Positions 18,433 through 27,816 of a DNA stretch of 29,945 bases are shown here, piece after piece (position 1 is the stretch's first letter; each line of letters starts with the position of its first letter). The position numbers were made by a program, and so were the translations under genes. Where the stretch lies: IMG/VR virus record IMGVR_UViG_2671181114_000018; one strand, 5' to 3'. The notes below the pieces were generated by a model. That model saw only the letters and a list, made by a program, of their open reading frames with translations, was not told the origin of the DNA and made no database searches. The stretch comes from a virus (lineage: Duplodnaviria; Heunggongvirae; Uroviricota; Caudoviricetes).

Positions 18433-19272
18433 TTACAGGAAATTGAAGCCTTTCTTGCCCTTGCTGAATTTCTTGTCCGGCAACTGGGTAACTTTGTTAT
18501 TCAGCTTGGTGAAGTTCTTCACCAGCTCCGGCAGATTACCCACCAGACGCGCAAAATCTTCGGTATCCACCACTTCCTTAACGGTGTCCACATCTTCCTG
18601 CACATCAGATACTGCTTCTTCCGCTTCACCCAAACGGGTTTCAATGGCAGATACACGCTTATCAATCGCATCCAGCGCTTCAGCGAGCGCCTGTAAAGCA
18701 TCAGGCTGTGATGCTTCCTGCTCCGTTGTCTCTTCTGGTTCTTCAATACTGAAAAAATGGCGCCAGCCCTTTTTCGCGGTCTTTGACATTCCCTTTTCCT
18801 TTTTAAATTCCCTGACTTCATCAAACGCCAGCGGCTTATACGGGCCGACGCGTTTTCCTTTGGTGCGGCTGAAACGTAGCCGAGTGGTACCTACCCCAGC
18901 CGGACTGTCAGTAACAGCCAACCCCTCAAGATAGGTTTTGCCTGTACTTCTGAAATTACCGTCCGGGGTAAACTCCGGTGATAAAAATAAAAGCTGACCT
19001 TTTGCATTTGCCTGAAGCAATGAAATAGCCGGGCAAAGACGGGCATATAAACGCAAGATCCCTTCATCATCACGTTCAGCTTTTAATTCCAGTACCTCAC
19101 CCATATTTCCGTAATTACGGGTATGTTCCGGCCATAACAAGGCAGGATAAAGTGAGTAGTCATATAACTCGGCAGCATCCAGTAACCATTGTTCCTCAAT
19201 GGTTCGCTTATCAACCGTTTCACCCGCAGTGGCGATACAAATCCAGTTTGTTGCCAGCTGTGAACCTGACAT
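18433..19272 (-). CDS. Capsid scaffolding protein (P2 O-like)
   Basis: Track ORF 18433-19332; probable start at internal Met 'MSGSQLATNW' (19272). Acidic coiled-coil C-terminal half typical of gpO scaffold; first gene transcribed divergently from P-Q. Confidence 0.7.
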   Translation of the reverse strand: MSGSQLATNWICIATAGETVDKRTIEEQWLLDAAELYDYSLYPALLWPEHTRNYGNMGEVLELKAERDDEGILRLYARLCPAISLLQANAKGQLLFLSPEFTPDGNFRSTGKTYLEGLAVTDSPAGVGTTRLRFSRTKGKRVGPYKPLAFDEVREFKKEKGMSKTAKKGWRHFFSIEEPEETTEQEASQPDALQALAEALDAIDKRVSAIETRLGEAEEAVSDVQEDVDTVKEVVDTEDFARLVGNLPELVKNFTKLNNKVTQLPDKKFSKGKKGFNFL

Positions 19273-19415
19273 ATTGCCTCCCTTCCTGCTGCGGTTTTCA
19301 GTATCGCCAATTAAATTAACCGCCGCATTCACTTCATTTCGGATATAAACAATTAGCCGAACACATCAGAAATAAAGCAGGATTTAATAAAGAAGCGCCC
19401 GTGCATAATGTGTGC

Positions 19416-21200
19416 ATGGCTAAATACTCAGAAGAATTAAAAGGCGTTGCGCGGGCGCTTTATTTAAAACGTTATACCCCGCAGGAAATTGCCAGTGAAC
19501 TTAATCTGCCTAACAGACGCATTGTCTATTACTGGGCAGCGAAATATTGCTGGGCGGAATTACTCAGCCACGAATCAACCGAGGACGCATTAAACCGCCG
19601 CATTCAGTCTCTGACATTACGTGAAGGGAAATCCGAGCTGGAGCTGCGGGAGCTGGACAGCCTCGTTTCTCACCTGGTGAAACTGCGAGCACAGCATAAT
19701 AAGCATCAGGAAAAACTGGCAGAAATTAAGCACAGCGAAAGTGATGCGCCGACGTCCCGTCAGTCCGGTGGAGACGAAAAGCCCCGTAAACGTGGCAAGT
19801 ACAAAAAAAATGATATCAGCGGGCTGACGCAGGAAGATTTCGACCGGTTCGCGCTCGAGCACCTTTTCGGCTACCAGAAACACCTTCGCGCCAATCTCAA
19901 TCAGCAAATCAGGAACATCCTGAAAAGTCGCCAGATTGGCGCAACCTGGTATTTCTCAATAGAAGCCTTTGAAAATGCGGTTATGACAGGCGATCCGCAA
20001 ATCTTCCTGTCCGCGTCAAAGGCTCAGGCTGAAGTGTTCCGCAGCTATATCGTCAACATTGCGGAGCAGTATTTCGGCGTGGAGCTGACAGGCAACCCCA
20101 TCCGCCTGTCCAACGGTGCGGAGTTGCGCTTCCTGTCCACCAATAAGAACACCGCCCAGTCATACAGTGGTCATCTGTATTGTGATGAATATTTCTGGGT
20201 ACCCAACTTTGCAAAATTAAACGAAGTGGCCAGCGCAATGGCCACACACGACAAATGGCGCACCACCTACTTTTCCACTCCCAGCAGCAAAACACACCAG
20301 GCTTACCCGTTCTGGACAGGTGAAGAATGGAAGCGCGGCAACAAAAAACGCGCACGCGTGGCGTTTCCAACAGAGAAGGAGCTGCGTGACGGTGGACGGT
20401 TATGTCCTGATGGCCAGTGGCGCTACATCATCACACTGGAAGACGCGATTGCGGGCGGGTTCAATCTGGCCAGCATCGAAAAACTACGTAATCGCTACAA
20501 CCGCGACACTTTCAACATGCTGTACATGTGCGTTTTCGTGGACAGCAAAGACAGCGTTTTTTCGTTCTCCCATGTGGAACGCTGCTGTATTGATCCGGAT
20601 ATCTGGGAGGATCATGACGAAGACCTGCCCCGGCCATTCGGCAATCGTGAAGTATGGGCAGGCTATGACCCGGCTCGCAGCGGCGACACCTCAACCTTTG
20701 TCATTGTCGCCCCGCCGATAGTGGCCGTCGAAAAATTTCGCGTACTACGCGTATTCCACTGGCAGGGAATGAACTGGAAATGGCAGGCGGCACAAATCAA
20801 AAAACTGTTTGGCCAGTACAACATGACTTACATCGGGATTGATATCACCGGGCTGGGGAGTGGTGTCTTTGAAGATGTGCAGCACTTTGCCATGCGTCAG
20901 GCGGTGGCTATCCGCTATGGCGTGGAAACCAAAAACCGCCTGGTGATGAAGATGATCGACGTTATCGAAGACAACCGCGTGGAGTGGGACAAGGAGAAAA
21001 CTGAAATCGCCGCCAGCTTTATGACCATCCGCAGAACGTCCACGGCCAGCGGTAACGCCATGACGTTTGTTGCCGACCGTACAGCTGAAACCGGCCACGC
21101 TGACAGTTTCTGGGCTATCGCCCATGCCATAGACAACGAACCATTACACTTTGAAAACCAGCGCAAATCACGCTGGGGTAACTTAGGGAAAGCAGCATGA
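19416..21200 (+). CDS. Terminase ATPase (large) subunit (P2 P-like)
   Basis: Track ORF 19401-21200 (599 aa); probable start 'MAKYSEELKG' at 19416. Size and position (P then Q, divergent from O-N-M-L) as P2 gpP. Confidence 0.85.
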   Translation: MAKYSEELKGVARALYLKRYTPQEIASELNLPNRRIVYYWAAKYCWAELLSHESTEDALNRRIQSLTLREGKSELELRELDSLVSHLVKLRAQHNKHQEKLAEIKHSESDAPTSRQSGGDEKPRKRGKYKKNDISGLTQEDFDRFALEHLFGYQKHLRANLNQQIRNILKSRQIGATWYFSIEAFENAVMTGDPQIFLSASKAQAEVFRSYIVNIAEQYFGVELTGNPIRLSNGAELRFLSTNKNTAQSYSGHLYCDEYFWVPNFAKLNEVASAMATHDKWRTTYFSTPSSKTHQAYPFWTGEEWKRGNKKRARVAFPTEKELRDGGRLCPDGQWRYIITLEDAIAGGFNLASIEKLRNRYNRDTFNMLYMCVFVDSKDSVFSFSHVERCCIDPDIWEDHDEDLPRPFGNREVWAGYDPARSGDTSTFVIVAPPIVAVEKFRVLRVFHWQGMNWKWQAAQIKKLFGQYNMTYIGIDITGLGSGVFEDVQHFAMRQAVAIRYGVETKNRLVMKMIDVIEDNRVEWDKEKTEIAASFMTIRRTSTASGNAMTFVADRTAETGHADSFWAIAHAIDNEPLHFENQRKSRWGNLGKAA

Positions 21201-22216
21201 AAAAACGGAAATACAGGGAACGCCGCACCGTTACCAAACAACGCCATATGAGCCTTATCACGCTGGGCAAGCCAGAACCCATTCTGACGACCGGCACGAA
21301 CTATACAGACGTCTGGTATGACAATGAGGCGGAACACTGGACGCTCCCGATTGACAGGCTGGCACTGGCACAACTGGTGAACCTGAACGCGCAGCACGGC
21401 GGCGTGCTGTATGCCCGTCGCAATATGGTGACAGCAAATTATGATGGCGGCGGCCTGACACATGAGCAACTGGGCGCGGCCGTATTTGACTGGCTGACGT
21501 TCGGTGATGTGGCCATTCTCAAAGTACGTAACGGCTGGGGGGATGTGGTTGCACTGTACCCGCTGCCGGCGCTCTATACCCGCCAGCGTAAGACCGGGGA
21601 ATTTGTTGTACTTCAGCAGGGTGAACCGGTGATTTATCCGCCTGAAGATATTATTTTTCTCAGGCAGTACGACCCGCAACAGGCTATTTATGGTCTTCCG
21701 GATTACATCAGCGGCATCCACTCCGCCCTGCTCAACGGTGAAGCCACGATTTTTCGCCGGCGTTACTATCACAACGGTGCTCACACGGGCGGTGTGCTCT
21801 ATTCCAATGACCCGAATATGACCGATGAAGTGGAAGAAGAAATTATTCAGAAGCTGGAGCAGTCAAAGGGGATCGGGAATTTCAGCACCATGTTTGTGAA
21901 TATCCCCAAAGGTGATCCGGATGCCATCAAATTTATCCCGATTGGTGATATCAGCGCCAAAGATGAGTTTCAGAACGTGAAAAGCATCAGCGCTCAGGAT
22001 GTACTGACCGCGCACCGTTTCCCGGCCGGTCTGGCCGGAATTATCCCCACGAACGGGGCAGTAATGGGGGATATTGAGAAAGCGGCCAAAACATACCGCA
22101 AAGCGGAGATTTTACCTATTCAGCGCATGTTCACCGCCGCAGTGGAGCAAGAAAGTGATGTACCACCCCACCTGTACCTTAATTTCCTGAAAGACAGTGA
22201 GCTGGAAGGTGATTAA
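21197..22216 (+). CDS. Portal (capsid vertex) protein (P2 Q-like)
   Basis: 339 aa immediately downstream of and overlapping the large terminase gene; size as P2 gpQ. Confidence 0.85.
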   Translation: MKKRKYRERRTVTKQRHMSLITLGKPEPILTTGTNYTDVWYDNEAEHWTLPIDRLALAQLVNLNAQHGGVLYARRNMVTANYDGGGLTHEQLGAAVFDWLTFGDVAILKVRNGWGDVVALYPLPALYTRQRKTGEFVVLQQGEPVIYPPEDIIFLRQYDPQQAIYGLPDYISGIHSALLNGEATIFRRRYYHNGAHTGGVLYSNDPNMTDEVEEEIIQKLEQSKGIGNFSTMFVNIPKGDPDAIKFIPIGDISAKDEFQNVKSISAQDVLTAHRFPAGLAGIIPTNGAVMGDIEKAAKTYRKAEILPIQRMFTAAVEQESDVPPHLYLNFLKDSELEGD

Positions 22217-22269
22217 TGTCCGCAAAAAGGCTAAAATATCATCGTTTTCCAACTTCCGGAGCGATGGAT

Positions 22270-22545
22270 ATGCGGGTAATGAAGGTTTACTGTCCGGTAT
22301 GTGAGGCAAGGGCTGTTATCAAAAAAACAGCCAGAAAACACAAGGAGCTGTCTGATTTATATTGCGCCTGTACTGATGTTGAATGCGGTCACACTTTTGT
22401 GATGAATATGACGTTCTCACATACCATCAGCCCCAGCGCCAAATCCAGCGATGCGTTGATCGCCACTATCTGTAACAGCCTTGATATGCAGCAAAAACAG
22501 CTGATGCTCAAATTTTTAAGTCAGGATGCTACCGCAGCAGCATAG
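22270..22545 (+). CDS. ogr: Ogr/Delta-family zinc-finger late transcription activator
   Basis: Track ORF starts at 22216 overlapping the Q stop; likely start at Met 'MRVMKVYCPVC' (22270, GGAG about 9 nt upstream) or 'MKVYCPVC' (22279). Cys pattern CPVC...YCACTDVECGHTF parallels P2 Ogr CPLC...HQCQNVNCSATF as I recall it. Confidence 0.7.
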   Translation: MRVMKVYCPVCEARAVIKKTARKHKELSDLYCACTDVECGHTFVMNMTFSHTISPSAKSSDALIATICNSLDMQQKQLMLKFLSQDATAAA

Positions 22546-22574
22546 AAAAAGGCACCGTTACAGGTGCCTTTTTT
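22546..22574. terminator. Bidirectional rho-independent terminator between ogr-like gene and the convergent cargo gene
   Basis: aaaaa-ggcacc-gttaca-ggtgcc-tttttt: 6-bp GC stem flanked by an A-run and a T-run, immediately after the ogr stop and 17 nt from the stop of the minus-strand cargo gene. Confidence 0.6.
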
Positions 22575-22590
22575 CATAGACACTGAGCAA

Positions 22591-23598
22591 TTATTTGCTT
22601 TTATTTCCATCATTATTAGGATGATTTACAGGAGTAAGGCCTGAGGCTACATCATTAGCAGTTTGAAGACTGGTAGGAATCAGACCGGGCCAATTTGCCC
22701 CATTTAGTCCCCAATTGAGTTTAGCTAAATTCTCACCAGGCCAGGTTGATTTCGCAGAATTTAAATCAAGTCCCTGAAGCCCCTGAAGCCCCTGAACCCC
22801 CTGAAACCCCAGAGAACCTAAAGTCGGCCTGGCAAAAGGCAGTGTATTCTTAGATATTTCCTGATTAATATCGTCTAATTTATTTTGATTCGCTATAATT
22901 TTGGCATTCAAATCCATCAATTCTTTTTCTTTTAATTCCAATTCCGTCCTCACCTTCGAAATTGAGTCCATAGCATTATAATAAGAATTGGTAACTGACT
23001 GAACCTCTTTTCCCTTTTCCTTTATTAACTCATTAATATCCCTGAGCTTTACCTGAGCGTTATTATATTTATCTTCAAGCGCGTTTGTATCATATTCGAT
23101 AGCTTTATTTGCCTTTTCAGCATTTAACCTCGCTTTTGCGTCTGCATATTCATACTCGACATTTTTATTTATTTCGTCTATTTTTAAATCAAGAGCACTC
23201 TGTTTTCTCTTACTATCATTTGTACTCTTTTTCGTAAGCACTCCATTTTGTATTACATCAACAACATATGAGATAAAAGGAGTGCCAACTACAAATATAA
23301 TTGAGGCAACAAATGGATACCAAAACGTATGAGTATGAGGGATGCTAATTCCAAAAAAGACACTATTTGATGGTAACGCCTTTATTTTTTCAATACGTTG
23401 TTCTATGTCCAGACTGAACGAGAATAAGAGTAATAGAGTGCGGTCCCAGTTACAGAGAATCCAAGAGGATATGAAGCATAGAAAAAATGGATTTGATAAC
23501 CGTTGATTAACAGCTTTCACTACCGGTTCAGTTGTAACTGATTTTACCGCATCCAAAGCTTTATCTATTGTTTCGCTCATTTTAGGAGTATCAACCAT
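22591..23598 (-). CDS. Accessory membrane-anchored coiled-coil protein with C-terminal collagen-like G-x-Q repeats (candidate superinfection-exclusion/defence cargo)
   Basis: 335-aa ORF (start may be the internal Met 'MSETIDK'). Hydrophobic N-terminal segments ('FFLCFISSWILC', 'VASIIFVVGTPFISYVV'), long K/E-rich heptad region, C-terminal 'GFQGVQGLQGLQGL'. Visibly AT-rich; sits between the replication gene and ogr/portal, the position of tin/old in P2. Confidence 0.5.
   Translation of the reverse strand: MVDTPKMSETIDKALDAVKSVTTEPVVKAVNQRLSNPFFLCFISSWILCNWDRTLLLLFSFSLDIEQRIEKIKALPSNSVFFGISIPHTHTFWYPFVASIIFVVGTPFISYVVDVIQNGVLTKKSTNDSKRKQSALDLKIDEINKNVEYEYADAKARLNAEKANKAIEYDTNALEDKYNNAQVKLRDINELIKEKGKEVQSVTNSYYNAMDSISKVRTELELKEKELMDLNAKIIANQNKLDDINQEISKNTLPFARPTLGSLGFQGVQGLQGLQGLDLNSAKSTWPGENLAKLNWGLNGANWPGLIPTSLQTANDVASGLTPVNHPNNDGNKSK
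22772..22807. repeat. In-frame tandem repeat, 4 units of 9 bp (ccctgaagc x2, ccctgaacc, ccctgaaac) inside the cargo gene
   Basis: Read directly from the plus strand; on the minus strand the units encode the G-L/F/V-Q triplets of the collagen-like tail. Confidence 0.9.
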
Positions 23599-23714
23599 TA
23601 TTTTTAAACAAAGTTATTGATAAATGAATAATATCATACTACTAGAAAACTGTAACATCACGACTTCCTTCATGATGTCACAGTTTTTAGCTATAACTGA
23701 GAGATATAAAGTAG

Positions 23715-26369
23715 TTAATCTCGTTTAAAAATCCAGCATCGGAATGTATCCGGCATCCGTTGCATATCCCCTTTACCACGGTTATGGCGCTCACTAACTG
23801 CGCTGCGCGTGGTGCTTTGTCTGATGAACCGACGTTCATTACCGTTTTTAAGCAGCTTTTTGATTTCCGTTAAAGTGAACGGAATCCGCTGCCGGTGTGC
23901 TGCTGCGACTTCTTCCATATGATTGAAATTAATTGCAATTTCATTTTCATCTGATGAGTGATTGACGCCATAGGGTGCCAGTTCATCCAGGTAATCAAAC
24001 AGTTCCCAAAACTCCTGCACCATCGGGTGATCCTTTTTAAGCGCCTGACAACGTTCAATAGCCAGCGCGGTGATGGCTTCGCGAGTTTTTTCTATGCGTT
24101 CAACCGGTACCGGCACAACAAGCGCAAGCGCCTCCAGCAAACCCACAAGCTGCGCGTGATTCTTTGCAATACGGATATGGCGAATACTACTGTTAGATTC
24201 CAGCGCATTCCTGGCGCGTTCGTATCCCTTACCGAACGTCTGCATGATTTCTTTCTCACGCATGGTGGCCAGTAGTGTGAATCCCGATACCTGGCTAACA
24301 GGGAGTTGTTCCAGCCGCTCCGCAGCGTGGCGCGTCTGAATAGACTGCCCGCGCTTGTCGGTATAGATATGGATAATACGCTCCAGAAACGCCTTGCTGC
24401 CGTCTGTATCAGCGTTCTGCGCAATCACAATACTGCCCCTGAATGGCGGTTCGTATGTTTCGTTATTGTTGGACTTTATCCCCACAGCACGGGAAGCGCG
24501 GCCGTTATACAATGATTTCAGTTCATCCCAGTCAAAAGCACGTTGCTTGGCGTTATCCGTTGTGCGGTCGCCTTCGATTAACACAACCGGCAGGTTGCCG
24601 ACCTGGGCAAAGTTGCGCCCACGCGCTGCGGCCGTGGACTTAGAAGGATCAAAACCTTCATATTCTTCACGGCCGGCGAGCTTCCACAGAAATTCAATCA
24701 GTGTAGATTTACCTGTCCCCGGTTCACCCACGATTTCCAGAAACGGGAATGACTTATCGCGCTCCCGGATTTGTTCGGCAAAAAGCGACCCCAGCCAGAA
24801 TGCTAGCGCCACGTACCCCTTTTCACCAAATGCCGTCCAGATATCGTCAATCCAGCCCGTGGTAAATTCATTCAGCTTTGGATTCAGATCCAGCGATGGT
24901 GTCAGGCTCAGGCTTTTTACACTGGCGTGATTGATTTCAAAATAGTCTTCATCGTTCATCTCATACAGCCGGCCATCGCACACGGCCACACGGTTAAACA
25001 GCCACGCTGAATAATCTTTGTTGTAGCCGATAAAGTTCTGTGTCTTAACCTCTTTTATTTCAGGAAGCCGCATCTGGATGAACTTATCCAGTTGCTTGGT
25101 GCTGCCGGTGTATACCGCCCCTTTGGCGATATGCAGCAAACGTTTCTTAAACTCGGCGGAGCTGGTGAGCTGGTTCGCCGTGAAGGTATCCTTCACCGCT
25201 GGCCGGTTCGGCATGTTGACCTTAACGTAATACCAGGACTCGTCAGTAGGTTCAGAACGCTGGAAATAGAGCGGAGTCAGCCAGCAGTTAGCTATTTCTG
25301 TCACGCCGCCAGATTCTTTCACCGCACGTTCTTTGGCTTCCCAGTCCTGGATAACTTCGGTACCGGTATTACTTATGCGCTCATAGGCTCGCATGTACCT
25401 GTCCAGATCCAGTTCAAACCAGAACATGCGGGAATTATGTTCAAAATAGAACGAATGCCACTCATTATGCTGATGCATGAGCAGCGCTTTTTCAGTCGGA
25501 CTTTTCGCCAGCAGAATATCGCCATAGTAGCGATAATTTTTGATGTCCGATTTACTGAACCGGCCACGCAACAACAAGTCATTCCAGTCCAGACAGGAGG
25601 ATGATTTCACCGGCTGCGCCGCACGAACTTTCCAGCCGGCATCCTCACTACGTGCAGCAAATGCCAGCGTGTGCTTTGTGCCGGCCTTATCGCCGTCAAA
25701 TGCCCATACAAGGCGTGGGCGCGGTTTTTCGCCCAGTTCTTTGGCCAGCGTATCCAGTGCGGCCAGAGGGTAGTTGTTACTGCTCAGTGTGGCAACTGCG
25801 GGTAAACCCGCCTGGCAAAGACTCAGCGCATTAAATATCCCCTCAGTGATCCAGATTTCATTCACTTCCAGCAGGTTGACAGAAGGTGGTACCCACCAAT
25901 GGCCAACATAACTCCCTTTAATATTGGCTTTTTGCTTACCAAAGCGTTGGGGCTGGTCAATAATGCGCTCCCACGTCGCACCACATGCCAGCTTAAATTT
26001 GACTGTTGCCGATCCCATGCCATCTTTAACAAACGCGCCCTGGGTGAAAATGCCTTTCAGTGGTTCGGTATCCAGCCCTCTGGCCTCACGCAGATACGCC
26101 TCAGCAGCTGCGTGTGGGGTTTCAGGAGTGTCCTGATACCGTTTAGACCAGTCCTCAAAAATATCCGGGTACAGCTCTTTAACAACGACCTGATGGCCGC
26201 AGTTATTTTCGCGACCACACTTCAGAATCCAGGGCTTATCTATGCTGGTGAATAATTCGCGCTTACGACACTTAGGGCATACACCCTGCTGCAAATACTT
26301 ATCCCGCTCTTTAAACTCAAAATCCTGAACAAGACGGCGCACAACGTCCTGTTGTATCGTTGCGTTCAT
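23715..26369 (-). CDS. Replicative primase-helicase, P4 alpha-type (zinc-binding primase + D5-like SF3 helicase)
   Basis: Track ORF 23715-26405 (896 aa); probable start 'MNATIQQ' (26369). N-terminal zinc-ribbon Cys pairs (CPKC...CGRENNCGH), Walker A 'GEPGTGKST' in the helicase part; size and domain order resemble P4 alpha. Confidence 0.8.
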   Translation of the reverse strand: MNATIQQDVVRRLVQDFEFKERDKYLQQGVCPKCRKRELFTSIDKPWILKCGRENNCGHQVVVKELYPDIFEDWSKRYQDTPETPHAAAEAYLREARGLDTEPLKGIFTQGAFVKDGMGSATVKFKLACGATWERIIDQPQRFGKQKANIKGSYVGHWWVPPSVNLLEVNEIWITEGIFNALSLCQAGLPAVATLSSNNYPLAALDTLAKELGEKPRPRLVWAFDGDKAGTKHTLAFAARSEDAGWKVRAAQPVKSSSCLDWNDLLLRGRFSKSDIKNYRYYGDILLAKSPTEKALLMHQHNEWHSFYFEHNSRMFWFELDLDRYMRAYERISNTGTEVIQDWEAKERAVKESGGVTEIANCWLTPLYFQRSEPTDESWYYVKVNMPNRPAVKDTFTANQLTSSAEFKKRLLHIAKGAVYTGSTKQLDKFIQMRLPEIKEVKTQNFIGYNKDYSAWLFNRVAVCDGRLYEMNDEDYFEINHASVKSLSLTPSLDLNPKLNEFTTGWIDDIWTAFGEKGYVALAFWLGSLFAEQIRERDKSFPFLEIVGEPGTGKSTLIEFLWKLAGREEYEGFDPSKSTAAARGRNFAQVGNLPVVLIEGDRTTDNAKQRAFDWDELKSLYNGRASRAVGIKSNNNETYEPPFRGSIVIAQNADTDGSKAFLERIIHIYTDKRGQSIQTRHAAERLEQLPVSQVSGFTLLATMREKEIMQTFGKGYERARNALESNSSIRHIRIAKNHAQLVGLLEALALVVPVPVERIEKTREAITALAIERCQALKKDHPMVQEFWELFDYLDELAPYGVNHSSDENEIAINFNHMEEVAAAHRQRIPFTLTEIKKLLKNGNERRFIRQSTTRSAVSERHNRGKGDMQRMPDTFRCWIFKRD

Positions 26370-26408
26370 ATATAATCCATGTGTGAAATGATGAATAAAA
26401 GGCAAAAA

Positions 26409-27208: not shown

Positions 27209-27544
27209 TTAACGTTGGGAAGCTGCAACAGGTTTTAGATGGGAGTTATTTATTCTTAATGCGTTAGTCGCCAGAGACATAAGACCTGAAATATTGTTTT
27301 CGGTTGGGATGTTTCCACCGAACACCATAAGCGTGATTTTATGAAGTTCCTCAAAATCTTCACTGTCATTATTAAAACGAGCAGTAGAGGTTATACCTTC
27401 AAGACATTTTGCAAGCTGAATGTTTAATTCCATTAACTGCAAACCATCGCTATGAACAGAGAACGTTTCTTTATCAATGGCTTTAGCCTGAGCGTGATAA
27501 TTTTGCAACAGGCTGCGTATGAGAGTCGCGTATTTAGTTTTCAT
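27209..27544 (-). CDS. Hypothetical early protein
   Basis: Track ORF 27209-27577; likely start at internal Met 'MKTKYATLIR' (27544), just after the cox stop. No motif recognised. Confidence 0.35.
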   Translation of the reverse strand: MKTKYATLIRSLLQNYHAQAKAIDKETFSVHSDGLQLMELNIQLAKCLEGITSTARFNNDSEDFEELHKITLMVFGGNIPTENNISGLMSLATNALRINNSHLKPVAASQR

Positions 27545-27816
27545 CGTGGTTCTCCCAAACCCAGCCACATTAACCACCCATCCCTAATTTCCTTCGGGCG
27601 GCTCTCATACGCTAATTTCATTCCGTTGTTCCAAGCAGGAAGATAAATCCAATATTCTCCAGCTCGACCAGAGGTGGATTGCGGGTCTGTCATTTCAACA
27701 ATAGGTAATTTCCCTTTTTCAATCATCCCCTTTACAGCTCGCTCCGATTTTCCAATGAGCCGAGCGAATTCCTGATAGGGGACAGCATCGCTGGTTAGAA
27801 CAATTTGCTTAGTCAT
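27541..27816 (-). CDS. cox: Cox-like excisionase / early-promoter regulator
   Basis: 91 aa, first gene of the early operon, divergent from C. Length and sequence closely resemble P2 Cox as I recall it ('...IPYQEFAKLIGKS...GRAGEYW.YLPAWNNG...'). From memory. Confidence 0.75.
   Translation of the reverse strand: MTKQIVLTSDAVPYQEFARLIGKSERAVKGMIEKGKLPIVEMTDPQSTSGRAGEYWIYLPAWNNGMKLAYESRPKEIRDGWLMWLGLGEPR

Follow-up and report, generated by a model that had tools for sequence, protein, structure and literature searches.

The 29,945-nucleotide (nt) stretch of DNA analyzed here (IMG/VR record IMGVR_UViG_2671181114_000018; its full length is referred to as the window) is a P2-like prophage of about 30 kb, probably from a Salmonella host. 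It carries an Ogr/Delta-like zinc-finger gene directly behind the portal gene of its late region. Members of the Ogr/Delta family, which turn on late promoters by contacting the alpha subunit of RNA polymerase, include P2 Ogr, B of phage 186, Pag of PSP3, and Delta of satellite P4. The open reading frame (ORF) of the gene overlaps the portal stop codon, and conservation within its first codons suggests that it also contains a promoter and a second start. The gene and its late-region neighbors are as follows.

22216..22545, + strand: Ogr/Delta-like gene, ORF of 109 amino acids (aa)
22291..22386, + strand: zinc-finger core C26-X2-C29-X22-C52-X4-C57, placed by alignment with P2 Ogr; residue 50 is a fifth Cys
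21197..22216, + strand: portal gene, gpQ-like, 339 aa (Pfam Phage_portal PF04860, 65 bits)
19401..21200, + strand: ORF of the large terminase gene, gpP-like, with its start placed at 19416 (MAKYSEEL); Pfam Terminase_6N, Terminase_6C, and Terminase_5
18433..19332, - strand: gpO scaffold gene, divergent from the terminase gene; gpO homologue by profile match

The 109-aa product belongs to the Ogr/Delta zinc-finger family. Residues 26-71 match Pfam Ogr_Delta (PF04606) at 57.7 bits (E value 1.1e-15), well over the curated cut-off of 26.3 bits, and the protein also matches PHROG 603, ‘transcriptional regulator’ (E value 4.6e-38). Its CX2CX22CX4C motif (C26, C29, C52, and C57) aligns with C4, C7, C30, and C35 of P2 Ogr without a gap and with all four cysteines paired. 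These four zinc cysteines are invariant in 43 homologues, all five cysteines, Cys 50 included, are invariant in the family alignment, and PF04606 is carried by 120 of 120 among the homologues listed. A Salmonella enterica protein (P0001) of 109 aa and 99% identity, found on 345 contigs, bears the NCBI name ‘ogr/Delta-like zinc finger family protein’. The original prediction, made from the letters alone, had placed an Ogr/Delta zinc-finger gene directly after portal gene Q and had named failure of a zinc-finger profile search as a refuting result. The profile match, the portal Pfam match, and the Cys spacing all agree with that assignment.

An AlphaFold model shows a three-stranded zinc ribbon (residues 32-66) followed by two C-terminal helices (residues 78-108), with a predicted local distance difference test score (pLDDT) of roughly 65-85, and the two-helix region is kept among homologues. 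A PDB sequence search and a Foldseek search with the model returned no significant relative, the best being a TFIIS-type zinc ribbon of a Pol I subunit (E value 0.24). This absence of a fold match to solved structures, together with a weak match to Pfam Lar_restr_allev (21.7 bits, under its cut-off of 28.6), would fit a zinc-ribbon protein that has some other job, such as Lar-like restriction alleviation or repression, and is not a late activator. However, the Ogr_Delta match lies far over its cut-off with the exact Cys spacing, and CX2CX22CX4C occurs only once within the window, which makes this the sole gene of its kind in the prophage. We regard a different job as extremely improbable.

The gene lies in a Peduoviridae-type locus, where homologues of gpO, gpP, and gpQ adjoin it. 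The closest sequenced phage is Escherichia phage ESSI2_ev239 (Peduoviridae, Evevirus), with 82.8% identity across the terminase-portal segment and 92% identity between the portal proteins; the MAKYSEEL N-terminus of the large terminase is also kept in relatives. In ESSI2_ev239, a leftward scaffold gene is followed by rightward terminase, portal, and ‘transcriptional regulator’ genes, then by a primase gene and early genes (leftward), and by repressor and integrase genes. The record of Yersinia phage vB_YenM_324 likewise has the regulator immediately after the portal gene, and Ogr-like homologues are found in Cronobacter phage ESSI-2 and in further ESSI2_ev phages. In Vibrio phage K139 the small orf14 stands between the portal gene and the ogr homologue. 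Relatives of the gene were found at no fewer than 263 genome loci (≥263) and on at least 567 viral contigs, and the order portal-then-ogr is common to hundreds of prophages.

In K139 and Smhb1, the ogr homologue sits between portal and replication genes (PMC8537503). In P2, ogr lies 3’ of tail gene D, beside attP (PMC5694545), and the contrast drawn in the original prediction with a P2 ogr next to the attachment site, at the other end of the late region, is correct. A portal-adjacent ogr is nothing exceptional, however: phages of the K139/Evevirus-type branch of Peduoviridae normally have the gene there. The kind of gene, its public annotation, and its position were already known (the K139 placement in PMC8537503). 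For annotation, this is the expected late-gene activator in a position normal for its branch, and no special explanation is needed.

Overlap with the portal stop and the in-frame extension

The junction between the portal gene and the Ogr-like gene has the following form.

22214..22218, + strand: TAATG stop-start overlap, in which the portal TAA (22214-22216) and the ogr ATG (22216-22218) have one base in common

Junctions were extracted from 80 genome loci and 80 IMG/VR loci. Portal-adjacent genome loci, meaning those with a portal homologue 44–93% identical to the window portal (n = 49), were spread over many Enterobacterales genera. At 46 of these 49 loci, the portal stop shares sequence with a start codon in the ogr frame, in the forms ATGA (35), TAATG (9), TTGA (1), and GTGA (1), and the same kind of overlap is present at 76 of 78 IMG/VR loci. 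The three genome loci without the overlap are K139, L005, which has ATA in place of the long start, and L051. Loci of the ATGA class have GCA, AAA, GAA, TTA, GTA, CCA, CAA, CTA, or TCA as the final codon of the portal gene. These nine codons specify eight amino acids and end in A throughout, and therefore the long ATG itself is under selection. Judged from these junctions, the overlap between the portal stop and the long ogr start is not due to chance. The overlap foreseen in the original prediction is thus present here and in nearly all relatives; its near-universal occurrence is a previously undescribed detail and a modest refinement of the P2 paradigm.

Transcription of the gene together with the terminase-portal operon, which had also been proposed, is plausible. 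The junction leaves no room for an intergenic terminator, and a strong hairpin terminator lies 3’ of the gene.

22545..22574, no strand: hairpin terminator, a 12-bp stem flanked by A and T runs, at which both the terminase-portal-ogr unit and the convergent 335-aa gene end

The predicted folding energy of this hairpin is -18.4 kcal/mol (z-score -5.9), and a hairpin followed by a T run is found directly 3’ of the ogr stop in nearly all relatives. A terminator scan of 18900-24000 missed it; the T run apparently pairs within the predicted stem.

Three in-frame ATGs (22264, 22270, and 22279) follow the long start and would leave N-terminal extensions of 16, 18, and 21 aa. An extension of about 18–21 aa had been suggested; only ATG 22270 is conserved among relatives, while 22264 and 22279 are not, and the length is therefore set at 18 aa. 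The first Cys stands at a fixed distance of 25 codons from the long start, or 24 in a few sequences, and no indels are seen. Among 44 unique sequences, the 54-nt extension contains no frame-0 stop, whereas the two alternative frames, counted outside a conserved hexamer, contain 62 and 23. A shuffle test for the absence of frame-0 stops in 13 independent groups gave P of about 0.001, and a further 43 unique IMG/VR sequences again contained none. Substitutions were assessed by pairwise counts. The ratio of nonsynonymous to synonymous differences (pN/pS) in the extension is 0.41–0.47 in frame and 1.3–1.5 in the wrong frames, as compared to 0.09 in the gene body. Across 21 disjoint pairs, 27, 40, and 66 differences fall at codon positions 1, 2, and 3, respectively (P = 2e-4). 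Because stops and indels are absent and substitutions are of the coding type, these patterns indicate, indirectly, that the extension is translated, under weak constraint. This open frame is a target of selection, as is the overlap that begins it.

A minus-strand ORF that crosses the junction (22112..22309, 65 aa, TTG start) was dismissed, as its codon register is one base off the selected open frame.

Weak constraint leaves room for a reading in which only a 91-aa protein starting at ATG 22270 matters. Ribosomes reading on from the portal gene would then keep the ogr cistron translated on late messenger RNA (mRNA), avoiding polarity or mRNA structure, and the extension would be a tolerated by-product. 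Several observations fit: the pN/pS of 0.41–0.47 next to 0.09 in the body, entropy that is nearly equal at the three codon positions in extension codons 9-14, predicted disorder of the extension (pLDDT ≤50 in the AlphaFold model), homologues in other contexts that lack it, and the loss of the long ATG in L005. On the other side, neither stops nor indels interrupt the frame, and the extension is therefore made. We consider this reading unlikely, although it deserves some weight. It differs from the one we prefer, in which a coupled long form is made alongside a short one, only over a distinct function of the long form, and the two do not really contradict each other.

A predicted promoter and second start within the extension

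Four further elements lie within or next to the extension.

22209..22214, + strand: -35-like hexamer GTGATT in the last portal codons, 17 nt from TAAAAT; TG at 22210-22211 invariant
22232..22237, + strand: -10 hexamer TAAAAT in codons 6-8 of the extension, conserved at the nucleotide level; promoter activity predicted
22258..22261, + strand: Shine-Dalgarno sequence GGAG, 8 nt 5’ of ATG 22270; conserved in 40 of 43 unique IMG/VR sequences
22270..22545, + strand: short ORF of 91 aa (MRVMKVYCP...), with a conserved ATG/GTG at codon 19; the annotated start in ESSI2_ev239

The TAAAAT hexamer, which spans codons of the form xTA-AAA-Tnn, is invariant except for A to C at its fifth base. In the extension, codon 6 has A as its third base without exception. 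Codon 7 reads AAA at 44 of 47 loci and AAC (Asn) at the other 3, and the synonymous AAG is never used. Codon 8 always begins with T, though it encodes Y, S, F, or L. Upstream, all of 86 unique sequences have TG at 22210-22211, the T falling at the wobble position of a portal codon for G, D, N, or C (GGT, GAT, AAT, TGT), and G at 22230, the extended -10 position, is nearly invariant. Since TAAAAT and TG are conserved at wobble positions while the encoded amino acids vary, coding constraint cannot explain this entropy pattern, and both hexamers are under selection in their own right. Two A residues in the promoter spacer (22225-22226, extension codon 4, AAA/AAC/AAT) are also invariant in the 86 unique sequences, and neither the promoter model nor coding constraint accounts for them.

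The second start is conserved as well. GGAG shows low per-position entropy, its wobble position included, and ATG 22270 lies 32 nt from TAAAAT. Homologues that are not behind a portal gene (Proteus, Pectobacterium, Rahnella, and others) begin at the equivalent of Met 22270, with MR[VI]... and a few with another third residue, and often have their own TATAAT-like box upstream. A putative promoter is annotated before the ogr homologue in the K139 record. Transcription is predicted to start near 22244; a transcript from there would have no upstream ATG and therefore could not encode the long form. Taken together, the conservation suggests two genuine starts and a promoter within the longer ORF. 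An in-frame extension that doubles as a promoter region and a pair of conserved starts are undescribed details. They bear on annotation, as gene callers are split for the Ogr-like family between starts giving 86–91 aa and starts giving 104–109 aa.

The gene could instead have no internal promoter or start, so that the 109-aa form alone is made, by portal coupling, and TAAAAT, GGAG, and the ATG are kept by amino-acid or other constraints. The long form is the one annotated by NCBI and in the vB_YenM_324 record, and a promoter scan is empty here at its threshold. However, TAAAAT and the upstream T are conserved at wobble positions, homologues elsewhere start at the Met 22270 equivalent, and the P2 ogr promoter has a matching layout. 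An activator that depended solely on its own target promoter also could not get started. Expression by coupling alone appears very unlikely, and the preferred reading retains the internal promoter and the second start.

A candidate operator and the proposed expression of the late unit

The region between the divergent terminase and scaffold genes contains a conserved dyad and two putative promoter elements.

19338..19361, no strand: dyad TTCGG-N14-CCGAA, candidate binding site of the Ogr-like protein from conservation and position
19404..19409, + strand: putative pP -10 element CATAAT, 6 nt before the terminase ATG 19416, in a conserved GCATAAT block
19300..19305, - strand: putative pO -10 element GATACT; conserved block CAGTAT(C/T) in relatives

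Two exact matches to TTCGG-N14-CCGAA occur in the window, against 0.12 expected. The dyad is kept in all relatives as TTCGG-N13/14-CCGAA, and the N14 form is also present in the P/O region of K139. Its distance to CATAAT is exactly 42 nt in the three lineages counted (the window, L015, and L002). On the scaffold side, the distance to the pO GATACT is 32 nt in the window versus 42 nt in relatives, owing to a 10-nt deletion in the window. Relatives, ESSI2_ev239 for example, have a second TTCGG copy there (19306-19337), and the window appears one helical turn shorter in this interval by deletion between two TTCGG repeats.

On the terminase side, CATAAT stands only 6 nt before ATG 19416 with no Shine-Dalgarno sequence, which points to a terminase mRNA with little or no leader in the window’s lineage. 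In Xenorhabdus relatives, the same CATAAT box is followed by a leader of about 45 nt that includes a Shine-Dalgarno sequence.

The second exact dyad (27299-27322) lies inside an early-region ORF (27209..27577, - strand), upstream of the exonuclease and primase genes. It is absent from ESSI2_ev239 and is probably a chance occurrence, although it could be a lineage-specific Ogr site. Dyads with two or fewer mismatches occur at a chance-level count, with no sign of further late promoters of this type in the 17-kb leftward morphogenesis cluster. ESSI2_ev239 has a single dyad copy, and therefore this cluster may depend on one divergent promoter region.

The P2 consensus TGT-N12-ACA does not occur in the 145-bp terminase/scaffold intergenic region, and it is found 5 times in the window against 7.6 expected. 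Its absence would suit a protein with some other job, as considered above; against that, this is a P2-type late region with a conserved dyad where the P2 activator site lies. A family member from phiRSY1 is reported to have the differing site TGTTGT-N13-ACAACA (PMC5694545), and a departure from TGT-N12-ACA is consistent with this. TTCGG-N13/14-CCGAA is the probable target of the Ogr-like protein. As a candidate operator for an Ogr subgroup, unlike the P2 consensus, it could help to predict late promoters in many prophages and satellites.

From these elements we infer that the late activator is made both from its own promoter (91 aa) and by coupling to portal translation (109 aa), and that it feeds back on its operon via the dyad; we think this model likely to be correct. 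The Ogr-like gene would be the last in a rightward late unit, terminase-portal-ogr, closed by the bidirectional hairpin at 22545-22574. In the first route, a sigma-70 promoter straddling the portal stop would give an mRNA from about 22244, on which GGAG and ATG 22270 would direct synthesis of the 91-aa protein. A route independent of the activator itself is needed, because an activator made only from the promoter that it activates could not start. In the second route, late transcripts from the terminase promoter would read through, and ribosomes finishing the portal gene would reinitiate at TAATG to give the 109-aa form, which carries the basic and probably disordered 18-residue N-terminal extension. 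The protein would bind the dyad at 19338-19361 and recruit RNA polymerase, as P2 Ogr does at the shared pP/pO site, and this binding would provide positive feedback on the late unit.

Two parts of the original prediction are modified by this model. Translational coupling is retained as an expression route, but the conserved putative promoter and the second start at ATG 22270 had been missed, and coupling is probably one of two routes. Positive feedback by read-through is plausible, but it is the known P2 design, in which ogr also ends a late operon with a shared terminator.

A number of points weigh against the model. Both promoters, both start sites, and DNA binding are deduced from conservation. 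The consensus promoter scan of 18900-24000 did not report the ogr promoter, which has 8 of 12 matches against a threshold of 9, and its -35 region is weak, with 3 of 6 matches. The conserved GGTG that precedes the long ATG (within AGGTGAT, 22207-22213) might serve as a Shine-Dalgarno site and not as a -35 element. Given the weak amino-acid constraint on the extension and its pLDDT of ≤50, the long form may have no distinct role, and L005 is a natural relative that carries ATA at the long start. The binding site was proposed from its position and conservation, and the P2 consensus is absent from the P/O region.

A more elaborate arrangement would be a two-transcript, two-isoform switch, in which the 91-aa form alone is made early and the 109-aa form appears late, its basic tail altering the activator (for example, its affinity, stability, or self-limitation). 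We hold such a switch to be doubtful. If it were true, it would be a built-in temporal feedback device conserved across P2-like phages of Enterobacterales.

The surrounding window and comparison with known systems

Between ogr and the primase gene lies a 335-aa ORF (22591-23598, - strand) with a G+C content of 33–38%, compared with about 52% around it. Its product has a predicted coiled coil and hydrophobic segments, matches PHROG 4780 (unknown function), and gives weak, coiled-coil-type PADLOC matches to LmuB. The same slot holds different small ORFs in ESSI2_ev239. The 335-aa ORF looks like a moron in a variable slot that corresponds to the P2 old/tin region.

The replication gene (23715-26405, - strand) encodes an 896-aa Toprim/DUF5906 primase (PHROG 1139) and not a nickase of the P2 gpA type. 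vB_YenM_324 has the same portal-ogr junction, yet its replication gene is of the gpA type. The late module, with its ogr junction, is therefore combined with replication modules of different kinds. Elsewhere, about 1 kb (1366-2381) to the left of the last tail/baseplate gene contains no minus-strand ORF that reaches 90 aa. A search of the window for the P2 cos 19-mer was negative, and Rfam and transfer RNA (tRNA) scans of the window found nothing.

The regulators of ESSI2_ev239, ESSI-2, and vB_YenM_324 resemble the window gene in gene order, in the portal-stop overlap, and in sequence (58–61% protein identity by tblastn). The ESSI2_ev239 gene is annotated from the short start and that of vB_YenM_324 from the long start, which is no difference in kind, and ESSI2_ev239 carries other cargo in the slot downstream of ogr. 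The K139 orf13 zinc-finger protein, taken here together with those of Kappa, phiO18P, and Smhb1, is about 50% identical. Its gene, too, comes after the portal gene and ahead of replication genes and has its own putative promoter, and TTCGG-N14-CCGAA is present in the P/O region of K139. K139 differs from the window in an extra small ORF, orf14, which separates the regulator from the portal gene, and in lacking the start-stop overlap.

P2 Ogr shares the Pfam family and the CX2CX22CX4C zinc motif with the window protein. Its gene likewise closes a late operon; a dedicated promoter lies immediately 5’ of it, and it has a terminator in common with the operon, annotated in the P2 record as ‘terminator for ogr transcript and F operon’. 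In that record, the ogr promoter reads TTG, 17 nt, TAAAAT, 34 nt, ATG, and the window reads xTG, 17 nt, TAAAAT, 32 nt, ATG. Between pP and pO, which diverge, P2 also has one site annotated as ‘activator binding site; pO, pP promoters’, and the window dyad is at the equivalent place. In contrast, identity between the two proteins is 26% over 38 aa, and P2 Ogr has 72 aa, whereas the window protein has 91 or 109 aa and a conserved C-terminal two-helix region. The host operon is the F tail operon in P2 and the terminase-portal operon here, and the window gene stands beside replication genes, whereas P2 ogr lies by attP. The P2 ogr promoter is in 81 nt of non-coding DNA, whereas the predicted window promoter is in an in-frame extension coupled to an upstream stop. 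The P2 site, TGT-N12-ACA, is at about -55, and the window dyad, TTCGG-N13/14-CCGAA, is about 66 nt upstream of the predicted starts. With a gene-specific promoter, predicted in the window, and late read-through in both systems, the arrangement would therefore follow the P2 logic, moved from the F operon to the terminase-portal operon.

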